Shown here: piece after piece, positions 1-32,959 of the stretch
Layout of the letters: every line of letters starts with the position of its first letter
Numbering within the stretch: position 1 is the stretch's first letter
Program-made: the position numbers and the translations under genes
The notes under the pieces: generated by a model
The model's input: only the letters and a program-made list of their open reading frames with translations
Database searches by the model: none
What the model was told of the DNA's origin: nothing
Virus record (IMG/VR): IMGVR_UViG_2554235419_000004
From: a virus
Lineage: Duplodnaviria; Heunggongvirae; Uroviricota; Caudoviricetes
Direction: 5' to 3' (one strand)
Length of the DNA stretch: 32,959 bases

Positions 1-1362
1 ATGTTTAAACCGGAACTCCTTTCCCCGGCGGGAACGCTGAAAAATATGCGTTACGCTTTCGCTTATGGCGCAGATGCTGTTTATGCGGGCCAGCCGCGTT
101 ATTCCCTGCGTGTGCGCAACAACGAATTCAACCACGAAAATCTTCAGCTCGGCATCAATGAAGCCCACGCGCTGGGGAAAAAGTTTTATGTCGTGGTCAA
201 CATTGCACCGCACAACGCCAAGCTGAAAACCTTTATCCGTGACCTGAAACCGGTGGTGGAAATGGGGCCGGATGCGCTGATTATGTCCGATCCAGGGCTG
301 ATTATGCTGGTGCGTGAGCACTTCCCTGAAATGCCGATCCACCTTTCGGTGCAGGCTAACGCCGTGAACTGGGCGACGGTGAAATTCTGGCAGCAAATGG
401 GCCTGACCCGCGTGATCCTCTCTCGCGAGCTGTCGCTGGAAGAGATTGAAGAGATCCGCAATCAGGTGCCGGATATGGAGATCGAGATCTTCGTTCACGG
501 CGCGCTGTGCATGGCCTACTCCGGTCGCTGCCTGCTCTCTGGCTATATCAACAAGCGCGACCCGAACCAGGGCACCTGCACCAACGCCTGCCGCTGGGAG
601 TACAACGTCCAGGAAGGGAAAGAAGATGATGTTGGCAACATCGTACACAAGTACGAGCCGATTCCGGTGCAAAATGTTGAGCCGACGCTGGGTATCGGCG
701 CACCAACCGACAAAGTGTTTATGATCGAAGAGGCCCAGCGTCCGGGCGAGTATATGACCGCGTTTGAAGATGAGCACGGCACTTACATCATGAACTCGAA
801 AGATCTGCGCGCCATCGCCCATGTAGAACGCCTGACCAAAATGGGCGTGCATTCGCTGAAAATCGAAGGTCGTACCAAATCTTTCTACTATTGTGCACGC
901 ACCGCACAGGTTTACCGCAAAGCTATCGATGACGCCGCTGCGGGAAAACCGTTCGATACCAGCCTGCTGGAAACTCTGGAAGGTCTGGCGCATCGTGGCT
1001 ATACCGAAGGTTTCCTGCGTCGTCATACTCACGACGATTATCAGAACTACGAATACGGTTATTCAGTTTCTGACCGCCAGCAGTTTGTTGGTGAGTTTAC
1101 CGGTGAGCGCAAGGGGGACCTCGCGGCGGTAGCGGTGAAAAATAAATTCTCCGTTGGCGACAGCCTTGAGCTGATGACGCCGCAAGGCAACATTAATTTT
1201 ACCCTTGAGCACATGGAAAACGCCAAAGGCGAAGCTATGCCGATAGCACCAGGCGATGGTTATACTGTGTGGCTCCCGGTCCCGCAGGATCTTGAGCTCA
1301 ATTACGCGCTGCTGATGCGTAATTTCTCCGGGGAAACCACGCGTAATCCCCACGGTAAGTGA
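1..1362 (+). CDS. yegQ: U32-family peptidase YegQ (host gene, complete)
   Basis: 453-aa ORF starting at base 1 (MFKPELLSPAGTLKNMRYAF...); sequence and length match my recollection of E. coli YegQ; GC-rich host-like composition; lies outside the att repeats. Confidence 0.85.
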   Translation: MFKPELLSPAGTLKNMRYAFAYGADAVYAGQPRYSLRVRNNEFNHENLQLGINEAHALGKKFYVVVNIAPHNAKLKTFIRDLKPVVEMGPDALIMSDPGLIMLVREHFPEMPIHLSVQANAVNWATVKFWQQMGLTRVILSRELSLEEIEEIRNQVPDMEIEIFVHGALCMAYSGRCLLSGYINKRDPNQGTCTNACRWEYNVQEGKEDDVGNIVHKYEPIPVQNVEPTLGIGAPTDKVFMIEEAQRPGEYMTAFEDEHGTYIMNSKDLRAIAHVERLTKMGVHSLKIEGRTKSFYYCARTAQVYRKAIDDAAAGKPFDTSLLETLEGLAHRGYTEGFLRRHTHDDYQNYEYGYSVSDRQQFVGEFTGERKGDLAAVAVKNKFSVGDSLELMTPQGNINFTLEHMENAKGEAMPIAPGDGYTVWLPVPQDLELNYALLMRNFSGETTRNPHGK

Positions 1363-1446
1363 TTAATTTCGATTATTTTTCCCGGATGGAAAATTCTTAG
1401 AAACCGATCACATACAGCTGTATTTATTAAGGTTATCATCCGTTTC

Positions 1447-1533
1447 GCTGAAAAACATAACCCATAAAATGCTAGCTGTACCAGGAACCACCTCCTTAGC
1501 CTGTGTAATCTCCCTTACACGGGCTTATTTTTT
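1447..1533 (+). ncRNA. cyaR: CyaR (RyeE) small regulatory RNA; its 3' terminator hairpin and T-run overlap the prophage attL core
   Basis: Sequence GCTGAAAAACATAACCCATAAAATGCTAGCTGTACCAGGAACCACCTCCTTAGCCTGTGTAATCTCCCTTACACGGGCTTATTTTTT matches CyaR as I recall it; ends in hairpin plus T-run. Confidence 0.85.
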
Positions 1534-1534
1534 A
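1507..1534. repeat. attL core (aatctcccttacacgggcttatttttta)
   Basis: Exact 28-bp direct repeat of 32457-32484; overlaps the cyaR terminator. Confidence 0.85.
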
Positions 1535-1634: not shown

Positions 1635-1853
1635 TTACATCCACATAATTTGCTGCCCTGACGGCAACGGGTGCGGTCTTACGGCGTGGACTTCTCCCGG
1701 CTTCACGATGTATCGCTGTACCGACTCATAAGTGATGAACGTGGCGCTGCAATTCACGTTCTGGCACTGGTGATAACGCTCTTTTGTCGTGTCAGTGATA
1801 TAGCGACTTGTACGCGCATGTGCGGCATGCTGGCATAAAGGACAATGAAACAT
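1635..1853 (-). CDS. ogr: Ogr late-gene transcriptional activator (zinc-finger), 72 aa
   Basis: MFHCPLCQHAAHARTSRYITDTTKERYHQCQNVNCSATF... with a C-x2-C...C-x4-C zinc motif; matches P2 Ogr / E. coli OgrK as recalled. Start taken at the internal ATG (1853) of the longer 100-aa ORF call. Confidence 0.85.
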   Translation of the reverse strand: MFHCPLCQHAAHARTSRYITDTTKERYHQCQNVNCSATFITYESVQRYIVKPGEVHAVRPHPLPSGQQIMWM

Positions 1854-8295: not shown

Positions 8296-8889
8296 CTATT
8301 TGTCCCGGTTGGCTAAGGGATGACACAATTTATTCTTTGTCGCTGATGAGGGAAATTTTTTATAGAGCGTGGACAGACCAATATCAAAAATCAGTGCCAC
8401 GCGTTGACGTGACTCCCCTGCAGCCAGCAAACGCCCGGCCTGCTCCCACTCACTCGCGGTGAGTTTCGGTCGTCTGCCACCAATACGACCTTTGGCTCTG
8501 GCCGCTTCCAGTCCGGCGCGTGTCCGCTCGACAATGAGTTCTCGTTCCATTTCGGCCAGGGCACCCATCACATGAAAGAAAAAACGCCCCATCGGCGTGC
8601 TGGTATCAATAGCATCCGTCAGGCTGCGAAAATTAACGCCGCGTTCGCGCAGCTCCTCAACCAGAATGACCAGATGCCGCATACTACGCCCCAGCCGGTC
8701 CAGCTTCCAGACTACCAGTGTATCCCCCTCCGATAATGTCCTGAGCAGTTTTTTCAGTCCCGGCCTGTCGGACTTCGTGCCGCTGATTTTGTCCTCAAAA
8801 ATCAGCTCACATCCTGCGCACTCCAGCGCGTTACGCTGCAATTCCGTATTCTGGTCATTTGTTGACACGCGTACATAGCCAATAAGCAT
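8296..8889 (-). CDS. Serine-recombinase DNA invertase (Hin/Gin/Pin/Cin family), 197 aa
   Basis: MLIGYVRVSTNDQNTELQRNALECAGCELIFEDKISG...VVWKLDRLGRSMRHL...GRFFFHVMGALAEMERELIVERTRAGL...: catalytic Ser in the VRVSTNDQ motif and a C-terminal HTH. GGGGGA Shine-Dalgarno 5 nt before the ATG at 8889. Confidence 0.9.
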   Translation of the reverse strand: MLIGYVRVSTNDQNTELQRNALECAGCELIFEDKISGTKSDRPGLKKLLRTLSEGDTLVVWKLDRLGRSMRHLVILVEELRERGVNFRSLTDAIDTSTPMGRFFFHVMGALAEMERELIVERTRAGLEAARAKGRIGGRRPKLTASEWEQAGRLLAAGESRQRVALIFDIGLSTLYKKFPSSATKNKLCHPLANRDK

Positions 8890-8944
8890 GAGCATCCCCC
8901 TGAATAAAAACCGGAGATGATGCCAGTTGCCCGTTATCTCTGCA

Positions 8945-8970
8945 TTTTCATAAACGTTGGTTTGGGAGAA
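8945..8970. other. Invertase crossover site, left (hix/gix-like, 26 bp)
   Basis: ttttcataaacgTTggtttgggagaa; its right half is the exact inverse of the left half of the 10784-10809 site; it encodes the conserved ...GLGE junction in frame. Confidence 0.75.
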
Positions 8971-9333
8971 GCGGCAAAACGGGATGTGGGTAACGGGCAA
9001 AACCAAATTCCTGATATGTCAGCGTGGGAGTGTGGGGGAGATACAACGACGGGATGGAGGCGAAGCCCGGATGGTTATATTGAACAATGGGGGCTAACTG
9101 AGGCCACAACAAATGAAGTTTTGATTAATTTTCCTATCCCATTTCCGACAGCCGTCATTTCTATTAATGAACATGACCAGGCTCCTGTGGCAGGGAAAAT
9201 GTCAGTATGGCAATTCTATAAATTGACTAACTCAAATGTCATAGCAGAGAACCTGGGATCTCTTGATAAAGGAAATCCATCCTTCAATGTTCCAACTGTC
9301 GCTGGTTGCCGCTGGTTTGCTACAGGAAGATAA
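8959..9333 (+). CDS. Alternative tail-fibre C-terminal cassette (Sv'-like), promoterless; would be fused to the H constant part only after inversion
   Basis: Open frame through the crossover site encoding ...NVGLGEAAKRD...; no plausible own start; immediately followed by the alternative assembly gene. Confidence 0.65.
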   Translation, partial: GLGEAAKRDVGNGQNQIPDMSAWECGGDTTTGWRRSPDGYIEQWGLTEATTNEVLINFPIPFPTAVISINEHDQAPVAGKMSVWQFYKLTNSNVIAENLGSLDKGNPSFNVPTVAGCRWFATGR

Positions 9334-9334
9334 A

Positions 9335-9775
9335 ATGAGTAAATATCTTTACGATGCAAAAACTAATATGTTTTACCCATTTACTCTGGAAAGTCAGTAT
9401 AAGGAGTCTGGGTTATGGCCTCATAATGGAGTTGAAGTTGATGAGGATATATTTATTAAGTACCTGTCCCCACCTCCTGGGAAGGTGAGAGTTGCGGGTG
9501 ATGATGGCTATCCTGCATGGGATGACGTACCGCCGCTAACTCATGAAGAACAACTGTCAGAAGCGGAACGAAAAAAACAGGCACTCATAAATCGAGTTAA
9601 TGAATATATTAACAGTAAGCAGTGGCTAGGAAAGGCTGCTATTGGTCGTCTGAAAGGTGAGGAACTGGCGCAATATAATTCATGGCTTGATTATCTGGAC
9701 GCACTGGAAATGGTTGATATTTCCAGTGCTCCAGATATTGAATGGCCTACGCCTCCGGCTGTTCAGGCCAGATGA
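9335..9775 (+). CDS. Alternative tail fibre assembly protein (U'-like), 146 aa
   Basis: MSKYLYDAKTNMFYPF...; C-terminus ...SSAPDIEWPTPPA parallels ...TSTAPDIIWPEQPEA of the convergent assembly gene; the 3' ends overlap on opposite strands, as in Mu U/U'. Confidence 0.75.
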   Translation: MSKYLYDAKTNMFYPFTLESQYKESGLWPHNGVEVDEDIFIKYLSPPPGKVRVAGDDGYPAWDDVPPLTHEEQLSEAERKKQALINRVNEYINSKQWLGKAAIGRLKGEELAQYNSWLDYLDALEMVDISSAPDIEWPTPPAVQAR

Positions 9776-10340
9776 TATCCGGCGCGGTGCTGGTATCTGT
9801 TGCCGTCACCGCGTCAATGTAATCCAGCACAGCGTTAAGCCGGGTTGTTTCTGCCTGCGTCAGTTTCCGCCCGGCCTGTAATTTCAGCTGAATCAGACTA
9901 ATGGAAGCCATTGCTGCATCAATCAGTGACTGGCGCTGTGCTTCTGCCGCTTCTACTGCGGCACCGTGTTGTGCCTCAGTATCTGTCACCCATTTCTCAC
10001 CATCCCATTTATCATATGGCGTTAACGGTGAAAGCGTGACATAACCGTTTTTGATGGCACCGATATAATCCACTGTAACAGCTGCGCCATTTTCGATTGA
10101 GTAAACAGTCTCATTGCGATGGTCTTCCTCATGGCTCCATCCCTTACCTGTAAATACTGCCACTCTTCCCGGAATGTTTTCGTCCGGGTCAATACCAGTG
10201 GAACAGGCGGGCATACTTACGCCAGTATTAATATATTCATCAGACCAGCCCGTATATTCAGACGTTACTGCATCATAATAAAAACAACGCATATCACCCG
10301 GCACTGTAGCCAGCCCATTTTCATCAAAAACAGGTTTCAT
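9747..10340 (-). CDS. G: Tail fibre assembly protein (gpG-like, currently in the expressed orientation), 197 aa
   Basis: 197-aa ORF directly downstream of H, start overlapping the H stop; Tfa-like C-terminus. Confidence 0.8.
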   Translation of the reverse strand: MKPVFDENGLATVPGDMRCFYYDAVTSEYTGWSDEYINTGVSMPACSTGIDPDENIPGRVAVFTGKGWSHEEDHRNETVYSIENGAAVTVDYIGAIKNGYVTLSPLTPYDKWDGEKWVTDTEAQHGAAVEAAEAQRQSLIDAAMASISLIQLKLQAGRKLTQAETTRLNAVLDYIDAVTATDTSTAPDIIWPEQPEA

Positions 10341-11623
10341 TATTTAGCCCTCACCAGAAAGTTAAATGCAATATTTCGCGGTCTGACAGCAACAAAATTC
10401 ACACCATCACCCACAGAGTTACTGTTGAAATTAAATCGTGAAAATCCTGGCTGATTTCCGGCGATGCCATCATGAAAGTTAATTGCGTGTCCAGCACCTC
10501 CGCCTATATTCCCGGCAAACTGAGAAAAGTTTGTAGCTTCCTGCCAGCTTAATAATTCGCGACCACCATCTGCACCTCGCCCGTCATCCCAGACACGAAT
10601 GAAATCACCGCGGGCTTCAGGTAATACCAGCGAAGGAAACACTTTCGCCAGCACAGGGTAATCAGAGGCAGAAAATTTCGCCCCGTTAAACTTCAAAAAC
10701 ACCATACTGGACCAGCTGTCGATTACAGTATTTGGCATTGCCGCGGAGGGCCAGAAGAACGGAACGCCAATAGCTGGAGCACCTTCTCCCAAACCAAGGT
10801 ATGCGAGAAGACCAGCCACATCTTTTCCACTCAAATGAGTCAGCGTCTCATCCAGTGGTTGCTTACCTGACAGCGCATTGTTAATGGTGGTGCTGAATTT
10901 CGGGTCATTGTTAATGGCTGCGGCAATTTCTTTCAGTGTATCCAGCGTGGCAGGCGCACCGTTAATCAGAGCGGTAATAGCGGCCTGAACAAACGCAGTA
11001 GTCGCAATCCGCGTGGTGTTATTTCCTGCGGCAGGCGTCGGCGCTTTTGGTTCTCCGGTAAATGTCGGATTATGTTTCTGGGCATACTGGGTATGAGGGT
11101 CCTGTGCGGCAATGTGGTTTCTCATCTGGTCATCCACATACAGCCTTAATTCCAGGACTTCATCATCCACGTATTTACGGGTCGCCAGTACCACCGACGG
11201 GTCGATTTTCAGCGTGATAGCTTCGGTATTCGTGACAACCAGAATCATGCGGATAGTCTGGGTACGACCGCTGCCTTCCTGTAACTGCGGTTTGTACGTT
11301 TCCGGGCAGTTCGCCACCGCAATGAGTACGCCTTCATCATCATAAAGCCCAATCTCACGGATCCAGAATCCGCCCTCGTTCTCAGGGATGATTTGCTCCG
11401 CAATAATCTGGCTCTGGTTGTTCGGGTCAACACTCAGAAGATTCAGCGGTGCAATGCGTTTCTGATTAATCAGTTTTGTCTGTGCCGGGTCTGGTGTCGG
11501 CAAGACACCATTCGCATCACCAACGGCCATTTGCGTCAGATTCAGCTTACTGCCGAGCATCGTCGCGTTAGCCAGCCGTGCTGCGCCCTGATTAGTCAGA
11601 ATGGCGTAGTATTTCACTGTCAT
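10340..11623 (-). CDS. H: Tail fibre protein gpH (constant N-terminal part plus the currently fused variable C-terminal cassette), 427 aa
   Basis: N-terminus MTVKYYAILTNQGAARLANA...MAVGDANGVLPTPDP...GGFWIREIGLYDDEGVLIAVAN resembles P2 gpH / Mu S N-termini as recalled; the crossover site is embedded at residues about 272-281. Confidence 0.85.
   Translation of the reverse strand: MTVKYYAILTNQGAARLANATMLGSKLNLTQMAVGDANGVLPTPDPAQTKLINQKRIAPLNLLSVDPNNQSQIIAEQIIPENEGGFWIREIGLYDDEGVLIAVANCPETYKPQLQEGSGRTQTIRMILVVTNTEAITLKIDPSVVLATRKYVDDEVLELRLYVDDQMRNHIAAQDPHTQYAQKHNPTFTGEPKAPTPAAGNNTTRIATTAFVQAAITALINGAPATLDTLKEIAAAINNDPKFSTTINNALSGKQPLDETLTHLSGKDVAGLLAYLGLGEGAPAIGVPFFWPSAAMPNTVIDSWSSMVFLKFNGAKFSASDYPVLAKVFPSLVLPEARGDFIRVWDDGRGADGGRELLSWQEATNFSQFAGNIGGGAGHAINFHDGIAGNQPGFSRFNFNSNSVGDGVNFVAVRPRNIAFNFLVRAK
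10784..10809. other. Invertase crossover site, right (hix/gix-like, 26 bp), inside tail fibre gene H
   Basis: ttctcccaaaccAAggtatgcgagaa; inverted relative to the 8945-8970 site with a shared 14-bp arm ttctcccaaaccaa; lies at H residues about 272-281 (YLGLGE). Confidence 0.75.
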
Positions 11624-23376: not shown

Positions 23377-23424
23377 TTAGCCCTAGCATTTGCCGGGGCT
23401 AATAATTGCAGGATTTTATTTTTT
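23377..23424. terminator. Hairpin plus T-rich tract between convergent Q and the cargo operon (candidate bidirectional terminator)
   Basis: ttagccc...gggctaa inverted repeat (23377-23402) followed by attttatttttt on the plus strand. Confidence 0.35.
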
Positions 23425-23988
23425 CATATTGTATATAAAGTCACAAATATGCGCCAGTGATAATCTGTTATAGTTTTCCAATGTAAACACAGGATAATTA
23501 TAGCAAATTTCAGGAGGAGGCAATTGCGAGCGAACAGTTGTTTTTTTAGCTGATTGCTGCCTCCTCGATAATTTACTTATTACACCAATGTAATCCACTT
23601 TTCTTGACAAATGCCCATGTAAATTCAATACAGAATATAGCCACTTACAAAAATGAATGCCAGTAACTACCTGTTTAGCCGCACCATTTGAGTTATAAGA
23701 TTTGAGATCTATTACGATAAAATAATCTACGTCTTTGTGCGACGTAACAAAAATTCCATCACAAACAGAGCATACTCCTGGTAAAGCAGAAGATTTTAAA
23801 AATTTCCAGACTGGTTTAGAAATACTATTAGAATCTAGCGAAAATCCATAGATACCATTTCCGTTTACCAGTAATTTTTTATTTGTAGCACCTGGGTTCT
23901 CTTCGCATACAACCCAGCATTCCTGCTCTCGCATTAATTGAAATGTAGGATCGATGCAACTTTGTATTACATTGATAATATTACTCAT
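23416..23988 (-). CDS. Unknown 190-aa protein, second gene of the AT-rich cargo operon; candidate effector of a defence system
   Basis: ATG overlaps the stop of the upstream ATPase gene (ATGAGTAA, 8-nt gene overlap); GAGGA Shine-Dalgarno; AT-rich codon usage unlike the phage backbone; no motif I can assign with confidence. Confidence 0.7.
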   Translation of the reverse strand: MSNIINVIQSCIDPTFQLMREQECWVVCEENPGATNKKLLVNGNGIYGFSLDSNSISKPVWKFLKSSALPGVCSVCDGIFVTSHKDVDYFIVIDLKSYNSNGAAKQVVTGIHFCKWLYSVLNLHGHLSRKVDYIGVISKLSRRQQSAKKTTVRSQLPPPEICYNYPVFTLENYNRLSLAHICDFIYNMKK

Positions 23989-25414
23989 CTACATCCTCAC
24001 TATCAGAGGCATTCTCCACCAAGGAGTAATATATTTCATCATTATCGTCATTAATGGCATTAATTACTTCATCAAAAGTTACAGCATTAATCCCTTCATT
24101 TGACTTCTGCATTTCATTGACTGAGCCATTATCAAATAAATACGCAGCGACTAGGTTAGAGTCTAAAATTGAGTCGATGCTAATCCCTTGCTTCTGCATG
24201 ATAGCGTTTCGTTTTTCAATCATATTTTCAGAAACGCCATGCAACATAATCAAGCTATTGATTTCTTTCACAAAATAATCACTGTGAGTACTAACAATAA
24301 CCCGAATACCAGAGTTAACTAGCTTTGCTAAAAATCTTGCAATTACTCGCTGATTTGACGGGTGTAAATTTAACTCGGGTTCGTCAATCATTAAAATATC
24401 ACCAGTTTTTGCTTGGTGCTCTAAATAAAACCACAGGCCAAACAAACTTTTAACAGTGGATGACGATAAATGAAGTTCAATTTTACTTGCAGGTGTCTTA
24501 CCTTTCTTATACGTTGAAAAATAAATCTGCCCTTCAGGATCAACTGAATATTTTCCTGAAATTATTTTTTTTACTTCTTCTGCTAATTTATGAAATTGGC
24601 CATTTTTATTTTTCCTATTAACCTTAATTTCATTAAGCCAGTCTATGTAATTTGCTATAGGAGCAGAATACTTAGACTTCATTACATCCATTAATAGTGA
24701 GTTCAGATCGAACTGTTCTTTTGAGGCGTGGTGCAATAACGCAGTTCTTCTGGAACTTAATTCATTGAAAAAAAGGTGCAAGCCATTTCTTTCTGCGGGA
24801 ATTAAAAATGCTGGGCTTTCATCATACTCTATCTTTAATAACTGACTTAGAGTTAAGTTTATAAACCCATCAATTCTGGGAAAAGCAGAATCTAGCAGCG
24901 TCATTTGTATGATATTGCTATTTTTATCTTTGGATAATAGCATTACTTCTTTTTTGCCGGTTCCTATGACGAGGCTAACATCCAATTTTTTTTCATAAAC
25001 ACTTGATACTAATGATTCTTCATCTATAACCCAGTCAAATGTTGAATTAGAAAAAATTTCCTTATCATTAGTGTTGAATACATCTTTAAGCATTAAAGAT
25101 GAATCTTTATTAAATTCTCTTTTGATTAACGTAAAATTATCTTTTATCCACTCAATTACATCTAATTCAAACTTACCATTTTCACGAAGAGTTTTGGCAA
25201 AATTTGCAACTTGAGGCAATTTTAAAGATGGTGATGGCATATTTAGGAAGCCATATAACCCATACATAACCCATGTTTTACCAGTATTATTTTTTCCGCA
25301 TAAAAGCGTTAAAGGTTTTGCATTAATTTCTCCTGTAGAGATACACCCAATGTTTTTAAATGAAAATCTCCATGATGCTAATTTTTTTACGTTAATTTCA
25401 CTTTGCTTTTTCAT
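23981..25414 (-). CDS. ABC-type / AAA15-AAA21-like ATPase (OLD/SMC-like fold), 477 aa; first gene of the cargo operon
   Basis: Walker A LLCGKNNTGKT (res 38-47); Walker B/D-loop ILMIDEPELNLHP; H-loop VSTHSD; acidic C-terminal tail; AAGGA Shine-Dalgarno; AT-rich. Confidence 0.8.
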   Translation of the reverse strand: MKKQSEINVKKLASWRFSFKNIGCISTGEINAKPLTLLCGKNNTGKTWVMYGLYGFLNMPSPSLKLPQVANFAKTLRENGKFELDVIEWIKDNFTLIKREFNKDSSLMLKDVFNTNDKEIFSNSTFDWVIDEESLVSSVYEKKLDVSLVIGTGKKEVMLLSKDKNSNIIQMTLLDSAFPRIDGFINLTLSQLLKIEYDESPAFLIPAERNGLHLFFNELSSRRTALLHHASKEQFDLNSLLMDVMKSKYSAPIANYIDWLNEIKVNRKNKNGQFHKLAEEVKKIISGKYSVDPEGQIYFSTYKKGKTPASKIELHLSSSTVKSLFGLWFYLEHQAKTGDILMIDEPELNLHPSNQRVIARFLAKLVNSGIRVIVSTHSDYFVKEINSLIMLHGVSENMIEKRNAIMQKQGISIDSILDSNLVAAYLFDNGSVNEMQKSNEGINAVTFDEVINAINDDNDEIYYSLVENASDSEDVDE

Positions 25415-25665: not shown

Positions 25666-25684
25666 GTGCTTTCCCCGCCTCGCC
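25666..25684. other. cos site (19-nt cohesive-end sequence)
   Basis: gtgctttccccgcctcgcc is the reverse complement of GGCGAGGCGGGGAAAGCAC, the P2 cohesive end as I recall it; sits in a GC-rich island inside AT-rich surroundings. Confidence 0.75.
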
Positions 25685-30374: not shown

Positions 30375-30565
30375 TTCCAGACCCTCCGGCTTTTCAGAAA
30401 GGTCAGAGCCTTTTTTAACGGACTCTGTTTTTTGGTGCGGATAATGATTCCCTTACGCCCCTTACCGTGGGTGATGGTGAAGTCAATCGCCCTGGGGCTT
30501 TCGTTACGCAATAACTGAGCAATACAACGAGGCTCATTCATACGGTTCTCCTTAACGAGGTTCAC
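30371..30565 (-). CDS. P2 orf78-like small basic protein, 64 aa
   Basis: Between cox and B; start/stop overlaps with both neighbours. Confidence 0.5.
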   Translation of the reverse strand: MNLVKENRMNEPRCIAQLLRNESPRAIDFTITHGKGRKGIIIRTKKQSPLKKALTFLKSRRVWK

Positions 30566-30827
30566 CGAGACCTAACCACATCAACCAGCCGTCACGAATC
30601 TCTTTAGGACGGCTTTCATAAGCCAGTTTTAGTCCGTTATTCCATGCCGGAAGGTATACCCAATATTCACCAGCACGCCCCGATACTGACTGAGGGTCAG
30701 TAATCTCAATAACTGGTAATTTCCCTTTCTCAATCATGCCCCTTACAGCTCTTGGAGTTTTACCAATGAGTTTTGCAAACTCCTGATAAGGCACGGCATC
30801 AGTCACGCTTACAAGCTGTCTATTCAT
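30552..30827 (-). CDS. cox: Cox (excisionase and repressor of the lysogenic promoter), 91 aa
   Basis: 91 aa; ...YQEFAKLIGKTPRAVRGMIEKGKLPVIEI...GRAGEYWVYLPAWNNGLKLAYE...; divergent from C. Confidence 0.8.
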   Translation of the reverse strand: MNRQLVSVTDAVPYQEFAKLIGKTPRAVRGMIEKGKLPVIEITDPQSVSGRAGEYWVYLPAWNNGLKLAYESRPKEIRDGWLMWLGLGEPR

Positions 30828-30948: not shown

Positions 30949-31248
30949 ATGTCAATAGACGTTTCGGAGAAGTTGAAGCTAATCCGTGAATCTGAAAGGT
31001 TAAACCGTAAAGAATTCAGTGAATTAACTGGTGTAGCCTACAGCTCACTTTCGAGCTATGAGAGCCGGTCAAAAAACGCTGGAGTTGAAGCCATAATGAA
31101 GGTCTTACAACATCCTAGATTTACTAAATATACTTTGTGGTTCATGACTGATCAGGTAGCTCCAGAAGCCGGGCAAATTGCGCCCGCTCTCGCACACTTT
31201 GGGCAAAACGAAACAACGTCGCCCCACTCCGGTCAAAAGACTGGTTAA
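30949..31248 (+). CDS. C: Immunity repressor C, 99 aa
   Basis: MSIDVSEKLKLIRESERLNRKEFSELTGVAYSSLSSYE...: HTH; GGAG Shine-Dalgarno; upstream of int on the same strand; 99 aa as P2 C. Confidence 0.8.
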   Translation: MSIDVSEKLKLIRESERLNRKEFSELTGVAYSSLSSYESRSKNAGVEAIMKVLQHPRFTKYTLWFMTDQVAPEAGQIAPALAHFGQNETTSPHSGQKTG

Positions 31249-31363: not shown

Positions 31364-32377
31364 ATGGCAATCAAAAAACTCGATGATGGTCGATATGAAG
31401 TGGACATCCGCCCTACTGGACGTAACGGAAAACGCATCCGTAGGAAGTTTGATAAGAAAAGCGAAGCTGTCGCTTTCGAAAAATACACGTTGTACAACCA
31501 CCACAATAAAGAATGGCTATCAAAACCAACAGACAAACGACGTCTGTCGGAACTGACACAGATCTGGTGGGATTTAAAGGGTAAACACGAAGAGCATGGG
31601 AAATCTAATCTTGGAAAAATTGAAATCTTCACAAAAATAACGAATGACCCATGCGCATTTCAAATCACGAAATCCCTTATCAGCCAGTACTGCGCCACCC
31701 GAAGAAGTCAGGGTATTAAACCTTCGAGTATCAATCGTGATTTAACATGTATTAGCGGCATGTTTACAGCCCTGATTGAAGCGGAGTTATTCTTTGGTGA
31801 GCACCCTATCAGAGGGACAAAGAGGCTTAAGGAGGAAAAACCAGAAACAGGCTATCTCACACAGGAAGAAATTGCCTTACTGCTTGCAGCACTTGACGGC
31901 GACAATAAAAAGATTGCGATTCTTTGCCTGAGTACAGGAGCACGTTGGGGAGAAGCAGCTCGTTTGAAAGCAGAAAATATCATCCATAACCGCGTCACGT
32001 TTGTTAAAACGAAAACAAACAAACCACGCACCGTCCCGATCTCAGAGGCTGTTGCCAAAATGATCGCGGATAACAAACGAGGTTTTTTATTCCCTGATGC
32101 TGATTACCCTCGCTTCAGACGAACAATGAAAGCAATAAAACCAGATTTGCCAATGGGGCAAGCCACACATGCACTAAGGCACAGCTTTGCCACTCATTTC
32201 ATGATTAATGGAGGAAGTATTATCACGCTACAACGGATACTAGGTCACACGCGGATTGAGCAAACTATGGTTTACGCTCATTTTGCGCCAGAGTACCTTC
32301 AGGACGCCATTTCTCTTAATCCGCTAAGAGGTGGTACTGAGGCCGAGAGTGTCCACACAGTGTCCACAGTAGAGTAA
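31364..32377 (+). CDS. int: Tyrosine integrase, 337 aa
   Basis: C-terminal catalytic residues ...ATHALRHSFATHFM...LGHTRIEQTMVYAHF (R, H-x-x-R, Y); adjacent to attR. Confidence 0.9.
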   Translation: MAIKKLDDGRYEVDIRPTGRNGKRIRRKFDKKSEAVAFEKYTLYNHHNKEWLSKPTDKRRLSELTQIWWDLKGKHEEHGKSNLGKIEIFTKITNDPCAFQITKSLISQYCATRRSQGIKPSSINRDLTCISGMFTALIEAELFFGEHPIRGTKRLKEEKPETGYLTQEEIALLLAALDGDNKKIAILCLSTGARWGEAARLKAENIIHNRVTFVKTKTNKPRTVPISEAVAKMIADNKRGFLFPDADYPRFRRTMKAIKPDLPMGQATHALRHSFATHFMINGGSIITLQRILGHTRIEQTMVYAHFAPEYLQDAISLNPLRGGTEAESVHTVSTVE

Positions 32378-32456
32378 CGTTTAAGGGCTTTCAGTGGTAA
32401 TTTATGCCGCTCAAACCCGCATTGTACCGTTGAAAGCCCCTACAGGTGACACCCTA

Positions 32457-32484
32457 AATCTCCCTTACACGGGCTTATTTTTTA
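32457..32484. repeat. attR core (aatctcccttacacgggcttatttttta)
   Basis: Exact 28-bp direct repeat of 1507-1534, about 80 bp after the int stop. Confidence 0.85.
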
Positions 32485-32641
32485 TGCATAAGCCCTATCC
32501 CTGGTCACCGTCTTCCATTGACCACATCGATAGAATCTCCCTTCATAGCACGATGCCTTTCACGTAACGGCATCGTGCTCGCACAGGTTCCGGCTAAGCA
32601 CAACCAGAACGCGCATGTTTGACGCTTACCAAAAAATATTC

Positions 32642-32959
32642 TCACTCTCCACATTTGAATGTCAGACGAGCGACGCCATGTAATCCTGCACCTTCTGTCT
32701 TCAGGTCAACTATCTGCATTTTTTTGCCCTGAGTAACACAGAAATGGGCTGCATCATTTTTTACTATATTTTCTGCACCAGATATTCTGCCCCTGGCTAA
32801 AGAAGCTTCGGCTTCGGTGTAGTATTGGTTATCGAGTTTACGCTGAATATTACTTTTATATGCAAGACCAAATTTACCGATACTTGTCTCATCATTATGC
32901 ACAGCACAACCAGACACAATAAAAATACTAATTAATGATATAGCAGCTATCTTTTTCAT
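32642..32959 (-). CDS. yegR: Putative lipoprotein YegR (host gene), 105 aa
   Basis: MKKIAAISLISIFIVSGCAVHN...: lipobox VSGC; 105 aa, as E. coli YegR; start codon at the window edge. Confidence 0.7.
   Translation of the reverse strand: MKKIAAISLISIFIVSGCAVHNDETSIGKFGLAYKSNIQRKLDNQYYTEAEASLARGRISGAENIVKNDAAHFCVTQGKKMQIVDLKTEGAGLHGVARLTFKCGE

Follow-up and report, generated by a model that had tools for sequence, protein, structure and literature searches.

A remnant of phage P2 was reportedly described at the primary attachment site of Escherichia coli K-12 by Barreiro and Haggard-Ljungquist in 1992, and CyaR is said to have been characterised in the same strain as a functional sRNA. In the genome paper of E. 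coli W, "cyaR RNA" is given as the insertion site of Wphi2 (P2), of ogr-D' in K-12 and of P2*B in strain B (PMC3032704); going by Table 2 of that paper alone, Wphi2 and P2*B are alike in target gene and phage family to the element described here. According to Bobay, Rocha and Touchon, who refer to Wassarman et al. 2001, phages had already been known to target ryeE in E. coli (PMC3603311). In the work of Nilsson et al., P2 integrates at coordinate 2165238 of MG1655, and P2-type sites are placed between genes, with no mention of cyaR (PMC3448106). The attP cores of phage 186 (tRNA-Ile), of Fels-2 and SopEPhi (ssrA) and of Salmonella phages at ryeB/sdsR likewise copy the 3' part of an RNA gene; in these integrations the gene stays intact and the target is conserved and contains a dyad (PMC3448106, PMC3603311, PMC3333887).

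The DNA analysed here, referred to as the window, is a stretch of 32,959 nucleotides. It almost certainly comes from a lysogen in which a temperate phage of the P2 type has integrated into the 3' end of cyaR, the primary attachment site of P2. The chromosomal place is that of P2 and of the K-12 remnant (yegQ-cyaR, prophage, yegR-yegS). With P2 the prophage has in common an identical core (27/28 bp), identical Int and Ogr proteins, and the same layout of arm-type, IHF and Cox sites. The difference from the other RNA-gene systems lies in the target, which is the terminator of an Hfq-dependent sRNA and not a tRNA-like fold, and of which the core contains the loop, the 3' arm and the U-run only. 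No evidence contradicting the P2-lysogen explanation was found in the sequence. The insertion of a prophage in the cyaR terminator is genuine; it is frequent in E. coli and has been described before.

The cyaR gene, the attachment core and the junctions

The left end of the window contains yegQ/trhP (positions 1–1362, plus strand), coding for a peptidase U32 family tRNA hydroxylase with matches to Pfam Peptidase_U32 and Peptidase_U32_C; the matching E. coli records annotate the same left neighbour as yegQ/trhP. In its conserved place downstream of yegQ, the complete sRNA gene cyaR (ryeE) is located at 1447–1533 on the plus strand, as judged from Rfam and from identity with K-12 cyaR. When the whole window was compared with Rfam, model RF00112 (CyaR_RyeE) matched at 1445–1530 (plus strand) over model positions 1–85 of 85, with a covariance-model score of 100.7 bits against a gathering score of 47 (E 3.2e-19). 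This is the sole Rfam match above threshold anywhere in the window, and no tRNA or tmRNA was found in it. The span of 1447–1534 previously assigned to cyaR holds the 87-nt RNA and one base beyond it. CyaR folds with the expected small hairpin, containing a CCUCC loop, upstream of a terminal stem of 11 pairs. The latter belongs to the intrinsic terminator (1498–1533, plus strand; MFE −19.8 kcal/mol), also recovered by the terminator scan, in which an 11-bp stem (1498–1508 paired with 1515–1525) closes a loop TCTCCC (UCUCCC in the RNA). The stem is followed by TATTTTTT, or UAUUUUUU as RNA, with the U-run at 1527–1533. By fold and scan, the gene has the U-tail for Hfq binding and the rho-independent terminator of CyaR. 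Upstream of cyaR, the sequence is that of K-12 save for position 1421 (about −26), a T where K-12 has a C; this base, some 26 nt upstream of the CyaR start, falls between a likely CRP half-site and the −10 region. A scan for the sigma-70 consensus upstream of cyaR gave no match.

A 28-bp exact direct repeat, AATCTCCCTTACACGGGCTTATTTTTTA, is present at 1507–1534 and 32457–32484. The repeat search found these two copies only, also when three mismatches were allowed, and none of 100 shuffles gave any match; a repeat of this length at these positions is far beyond chance. It can be extended to 35 nt with two mismatches. The repeat begins at the penultimate base of the 5' stem arm and takes in the loop, all of the 3' arm and the U-run. 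In the preliminary description the att core was said to coincide with the terminator hairpin and T-run, which is right for the loop, the 3' arm and the U-run, while 9 of the 11 nt of the 5' arm fall outside it. Present at both ends of the prophage, the repeat has the very sequence annotated in P2 as the attP core (AF063097, 24356–24382, 27 bp).

At the left, cyaR-side junction (core 1507–1534), the order is cyaR 5' part, core, P2 P arm, ogr terminator and ogr; at the right, int-side junction (core 32457–32484, placed by the exact repeat and by alignment to an empty site), it is int, P2 P' arm, core and chromosomal DNA. This anatomy and its identity to the P2 att elements are directly visible. 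In the P2 record, the interval between ogr and int holds first an Int site of the P arm and an IHF site, then the attP core, and after it a Cox-binding region and an Int site of the P' arm. Transfer of its protein-binding features puts a predicted IHF site (about 1532–1565) and two predicted arm-type Int sites (about 1569–1596) in the P arm (1532–1596), the latter reading TGTGGTCA and TGTGGACG on the minus strand; core and P-arm flank are 95.5% identical to P2 over 134 nt. Likewise, the P' arm (32343–32440) would contain two arm-type Int sites (about 32343–32369), which are two copies of TGTGGACA on the minus strand, overlapping the 3' end of int, and a Cox-binding region (about 32367–32440); the 50 nt to the left of the right-hand core differ from P2 at a single base. 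The consensus of the arm-type Int site is tgTGGaCa (PMC3448106). The left junction may be called attL in the orientation of the window, as it was at the outset; by the P2 convention it is attR, a name derived by us from the labels of the P2 record, where the ogr side is P and the int side P'.

P2 and the free phages P2_2H4, P2_2H1 and P2_4C9 all have the P' arm, the same 28 bases and the P arm in succession. The unoccupied site of E. coli FORC_029 consists of exactly the left flank, one core and the right flank, so that the empty site is reconstructed directly; that of strain 4/4 is the same but for a one-base allele difference. Such a junction structure is, by sequence, the signature of integrase-mediated site-specific recombination. 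An origin of the repeat by chance, homologous recombination or transposition, without an integrase, is so improbable that it can in practice be set aside: no shuffle gives any match, the repeat is the same as the attP core annotated from experiments on P2, and the Int, IHF and Cox sites lie where they are expected, other strains have the empty site precisely restored, and neither a transposase nor inverted-repeat ends are present. The P2 core match, the FORC_029 site and the shuffles led to its rejection. Also rejected was the idea of a phage carrying the whole of cyaR, as the free phage genomes have the 28-bp core only and the Rfam scan gives one CyaR.

The proposed course of integration begins with the circular phage, with an attP between ogr and int made up of the 27/28-bp core and the arm-type Int, IHF and Cox sites. 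The attP core duplicates part of the CyaR terminator, namely its loop, 3' stem arm and U-run, and would be recombined with the identical chromosomal sequence by the tyrosine integrase and the IHF of the host; from established P2 biology we infer that Int and IHF serve integration and that Cox serves excision. In one product, the 5' part of cyaR would be joined to a phage-derived distal core, with the P arm and ogr behind it; in the other, int and the P' arm would lead into a host-derived distal core and the former downstream DNA. Since the segments exchanged do not differ in this case, the promoter, the seed regions, the terminator and the Hfq-binding U-tail of CyaR are unchanged, and for this reason integration is proposed to be neutral for the sRNA.

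At 32471–32495, an 8-bp hairpin (arms GGGCTTAT and ATAAGCCC, loop of 9 nt) is formed by the core end together with the bases that follow it. It exists at the int-side junction and in empty sites, and is missing from the cyaR-side junction of lysogens, where the phage arm takes the place of ATGCATAAGCCC.

The gene order in K-12 MG1655 is yegQ-cyaR-ogrK-(truncated D)-yegR-yegS. The K-12 sequence maps to positions 1300–2148 of the window and resumes at 32466, within the right-hand core; K-12 has thus kept ogr and the junction on the cyaR side, together with some 210 bp of D and a portion of the second core. A decayed P2-like remnant (ogrK, yegZ) had been surmised for K-12, and K-12 does have this junction, with ogrK and a truncated D gene behind it. 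Between 1300 and 1700, the two sequences differ at 1421, 1631, 1677 and 1684 only, and all four positions fall outside cyaR, core, arm and both terminators, the junction being base-for-base that of the window through the ogr terminator. The view that a complete cyaR is preserved is borne out by this identity, which runs through cyaR, core, phage arm and ogr terminator. The terminator stem, for which a departure from functional CyaR had been named as the point to look for, is unchanged in the window.

Transcription of cyaR does read towards ogr, as the preliminary description noted: cyaR (plus strand) converges on ogr and the late F operon (minus strand), with about 100 bp in between. Between the cyaR terminator and the ogr stop codon is a 9-bp GC-rich hairpin (1602–1623), the terminator hairpin of ogr and the late F operon according to the P2 annotation and our scan, which scores as terminator-like on the plus strand as well. 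The convergence of the two units at such a short distance speaks for a reading in which integration is not neutral, and read-through from cyaR or late phage transcription alters CyaR or ogr by convergent interference. We consider this unlikely, given that the sequence of CyaR and its terminator is unchanged, that the plus-strand terminator-like hairpin stands before the ogr stop codon, and that the identical junction is found in K-12, where CyaR is said to be a functional sRNA. A P2 lysogen, furthermore, should keep ogr and the late operon silent. A published read-through of 41% for the CyaR terminator, measured by plasmid assay in a delta-hfq strain (PMC9765468), counts in favour of interference and makes some transcription into the phage arm plausible.

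Gene content of the prophage

The prophage body, of P2 type (Peduovirus), measures 30.9 kb (1535–32456) and was delimited by megablast and by tblastn, with translations of all annotated P2 (AF063097) proteins as queries on the window. Genes are arranged in the order ogr-D-U-T-E-FII-FI-(invertase cassette)-G-H-I-J-W-V-S-R-lysis-K-Y-X-L-M-N-O, continuing with P-Q-(defence cargo)-cos-A-orf83..80-B-orf78-cox / C-int. The tyrosine integrase gene int (31364–32377, plus strand), supported by matches to the tyrosine recombinase family, encodes a protein identical to P2 Int at 337 of 337 residues, and its stop codon is 79 bp before the right-hand core. The late-gene activator gene ogr (1635–1853, minus strand; NCBIfam PRK09678) has a product with 100% amino acid identity to P2 Ogr. 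D, U, T, E, FII, FI, J, W, V, S and R, and also K, Y, X, L, M, N, O, P, Q, A and B, are full length and 96–100% identical to P2, while the gene I product is 82% identical. A 19-nt cos sequence is present at 25666. In a megablast comparison with phage genomes, many Peduovirus genomes are about 97% identical over 72–78% of the query.

The differences from P2 are confined to a few places. The C repressor is 65% and Cox 84% identical to their P2 counterparts, making the prophage a heteroimmune relative of P2 and not P2 itself. These two diverged genes (C, 30949–31248; Cox, 30552–30827) accompany an Int (100% identity) and an att site that are P2's own, an arrangement that reads as a swapped immunity module with integration specificity kept. 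In the tail fibre protein H, the amino-terminal 256 of 669 residues match P2 at 42% identity and the carboxy-terminal part has been replaced. P2 G has no tblastn match in the window, which has a different tail-fibre assembly gene at 9747–10340; there is likewise no tblastn match in the window for orf30, fun(Z), orf91 or tin, and the similarity to old is limited to a fragment of 43 residues.

In the place of old and tin in P2, the window has a predicted two-gene anti-phage system, PD-T4-4 (23416–25414, minus strand), with a 477-aa AAA_15 ATPase matching PD-T4-4_A (E 2e-112) and a 190-aa protein matching PD-T4-4_B (E 1e-15). The position of fun(Z) is taken by a serine invertase (8296–9006, Resolvase and HTH_7) at the start of a cassette (8296–10809). 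Here, inverted repeats of 27 nt (8945–8971 and 10783–10809) flank the tail-fibre carboxy-terminus, the assembly gene and alternative open reading frames on the opposite strand. The whole looks like an invertible host-range cassette of the Mu/P1 type.

The absence or replacement of orf30, fun(Z), orf91, tin, old and the tail-fibre carboxy-terminus could point to a defective, cryptic prophage like that of K-12 and not to a complete, potentially active one, and remnants are indeed common at this site, the ogr-side junction being found in about 355 more genomes than the int-side one. A cryptic state is nevertheless quite unlikely. The essential P2 genes are all full length, with 82–100% identity, no truncation and the P2 order; cos, both att junctions, int, cox and C are all there; and orf30, fun(Z), orf91, tin and old are marked as non-essential in the P2 record. 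The earlier statement that a full prophage occupies the locus therefore agrees with the two cores, the essential P2 genes, cos, int and ogr found in the window: where the ogrK-yegZ(D') remnant of K-12 is incomplete, the prophage of the window is complete.

Transfer of the cyaR 3' end

As the two cores of the window are identical, the origin of the cyaR 3' end is not visible there. The 3' stem arm varies among unoccupied E. coli sites, with three alleles (ACGGGC, ACAGGC and GCAGGC; window 1519–1521). The commonest is that of the window (TTACACGGGC), a second (TTACACAGGC) is found at unoccupied sites in roughly 520 genomes and a third (TTACGCAGGC) is rare; GCAGGC occurs in 29 of 5,426 genomes, among them the type strain ATCC 11775. 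Since U residues of the invariant 5' arm face the variable positions, the stem stays paired with each of the three; in some other lysogens its sequence does change, but only between U-A and U-G pairs.

A near-isogenic pair of Swedish faecal isolates, 4/4 (unoccupied) and 4/1-1 (a P2-type lysogen), was compared; their flanks have no mismatches in 250 nt on each side. The empty site of 4/4 reads ...ACACAGGC..., whereas 4/1-1 has the P2 allele ...ACACGGGC..., as do all four free phages, on the cyaR side, and the host allele ...ACACAGGC... in its int-side core. Strains 4/1-1 and ATCC 11775 share one protein accession for Int, and the Int of ATCC 11775 equals that of the window. Whether the prophage was gained or lost, this comparison places the exchange point for P2 Int 5' of core position 15 (window 1521), so that the distal 3' arm and the U-run of CyaR in a lysogen are phage DNA. 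Both cleavage sites are predicted to lie 5' of position 15, probably within AATCTCCCTTACAC. That the 3' end of cyaR is supplied by the phage, as had been proposed from the window, thus finds its evidence in the allele transfer between these related strains, where the direction is directly observed, and not in the window itself.

Counted by exact match, ACAGGC occupies the int-side junction of 19 genomes and the cyaR-side junction of two, population counts that agree with a transfer from phage to cyaR. On the cyaR side, GCAGGC is present in ATCC 11775 and APEC O1; the int side of ATCC 11775 reads ACGGGC. In UTAK-6 and EC11, a cyaR-side GCAGGC is located beside the arm of a second P2-like phage; in UTAK-6, where Int is 83% identical and the int side is ACGGGC, phage homology starts at CCCTTAC. 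The alleles of these four strains fit the same direction of transfer; by themselves such heteroallelic lysogens are no proof of it, because host alleles vary. Mapping of the crossover from ATCC 11775 and UTAK-6 alone was abandoned as ambiguous, the empty sites being polymorphic, and it was the pair 4/4 and 4/1-1 that settled position 15. The phage collection contains no free-phage attP of the UTAK-6/EC11 type, and the parental core allele of that type is consequently one that we infer.

Use of the site in enterobacteria and the yegR islet

Among 5,426 complete E. coli genomes, the cyaR-core-P arm-ogr junction is present in 1,166 and the int-core-yegR junction in 811, which means that the site is occupied in about 15–21% of them. 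Roughly 15% carry an int-bearing P2-type element and a further 6–7% a K-12-like remnant. In E. coli DETEC-P622, similarity to the window ends at position 1445 and is followed by an IS1 element (locus 1647–2359); cyaR appears to be deleted or disrupted in this strain.

Other species were represented by one genome each and scanned for the CyaR seed and the start of the terminator, yielding at least 120 loci. Among the matches listed, yegQ is upstream of cyaR in 117 of 120 loci, and in 11 of the 120 a P2-type arm directly follows the U-run of cyaR. These 11 come from Citrobacter, Buttiauxella, Enterobacter, E. albertii and further Enterobacteriaceae, and their arm reads GAAATAAAAGGATTTATTTC, then GTCCACACATTGACCACATCGA; in four of them Ogr homologues are found downstream, mostly together with D. 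The terminator stem varies between genera and is still paired in nine of the 11 occupied sites, one Buttiauxella locus having a C:A mismatch in it. Judged from these junctions, the 3' end of cyaR is an attachment site of the P2 family across the bacterial family. In E. albertii NBRC 107761, cyaR is followed by a P2 arm that is cut after the first arm-type site and then by IS-like sequence, a junction that would be a further independent remnant at the site.

The right neighbour of the prophage is yegR (32642–32959, minus strand), annotated in matching records as coding for a 105-aa protein, in one of them as lipoprotein YegR. Between the right-hand core and yegR, local alignment reveals a decayed P2 P arm in the chromosomal flank (32496–32544), as a repeat of 1562–1610. 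The alignment score is 38, against a maximum of 26 for shuffled sequences (reached by none of 2,000). One arm-type Int site is intact in this relic, the second is degenerate and the IHF site has been deleted; unoccupied E. coli sites have the same relic sequence. Of the 120 loci listed for other species, 101 have yegS next after cyaR, in the same orientation and with a median gap of 104 nt, and yegR is absent from the cyaR locus in all 120. In the Escherichia cryptic-clade genome E1V33, cyaR is joined directly to the spacer that precedes yegS in E. coli, a contiguous arrangement found in none of the 5,426 complete E. coli genomes. Empty E. coli sites instead have an islet of 810 bp (FORC_029 locus 1735–2544), with a G+C content of 40% compared to 54% for yegQ, which opens with the decayed P arm, contains yegR and ends at the ancestral cyaR-yegS spacer.

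We put at even chances the reading that the "unoccupied" E. coli site is itself the fossil of an earlier P2-like integration, of which the arm relic and yegR are all that is left. If so, yegR would be a fixed leftover of an ancient prophage or of its cargo, the P2 landing pad would be older than the diversification of E. coli, and each new lysogen would have a junction resembling P' arm, core and old P arm. Linked to this reading, and put forward at the same strength, is the idea that integration and excision of phages with slightly differing cores swap the 3'-arm alleles of CyaR without ever breaking the stem.

P2 homology within the islet amounts to a 31-nt match to the P arm, a 25-nt match to the orf30 region (E 0.03) having been disregarded. 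A possible decayed right-hand core at the end of the islet gives a plausible-looking alignment, but 383 of 5,000 shuffles score as well. A phage origin of YegR received no support from a tblastn search of 50,697 phage records, in which two only, vB_EcoM-720R8 and "Phage TP", matched, apparently through host or K-12-like flank. YegR could be assigned to no family in Pfam, NCBIfam or PADLOC. Immediately beyond the arm relic, at 32534–32543, there is a second copy of the first ten bases of the core, AATCTCCCTT; K-12 and BL21 have AATCCTCCTT at the equivalent position. This copy could be due to chance (p about 0.003 by a rough estimate) or be another old att layer.

What is known of the function of CyaR and of P2 integration is unaffected by these findings. 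Their main use is in annotation, where cyaR should be recorded as intact and the prophage as 1535–32456 plus one copy of the core. The locus is a clean textbook case of a phage that enters the 3' end of a regulatory RNA gene and rebuilds the gene. Two points, both evolutionary, are mildly new: in some lineages the incoming phage alters one or two bases of the CyaR stem (U-A to U-G wobble), and the site has been reused across many enterobacterial genera.
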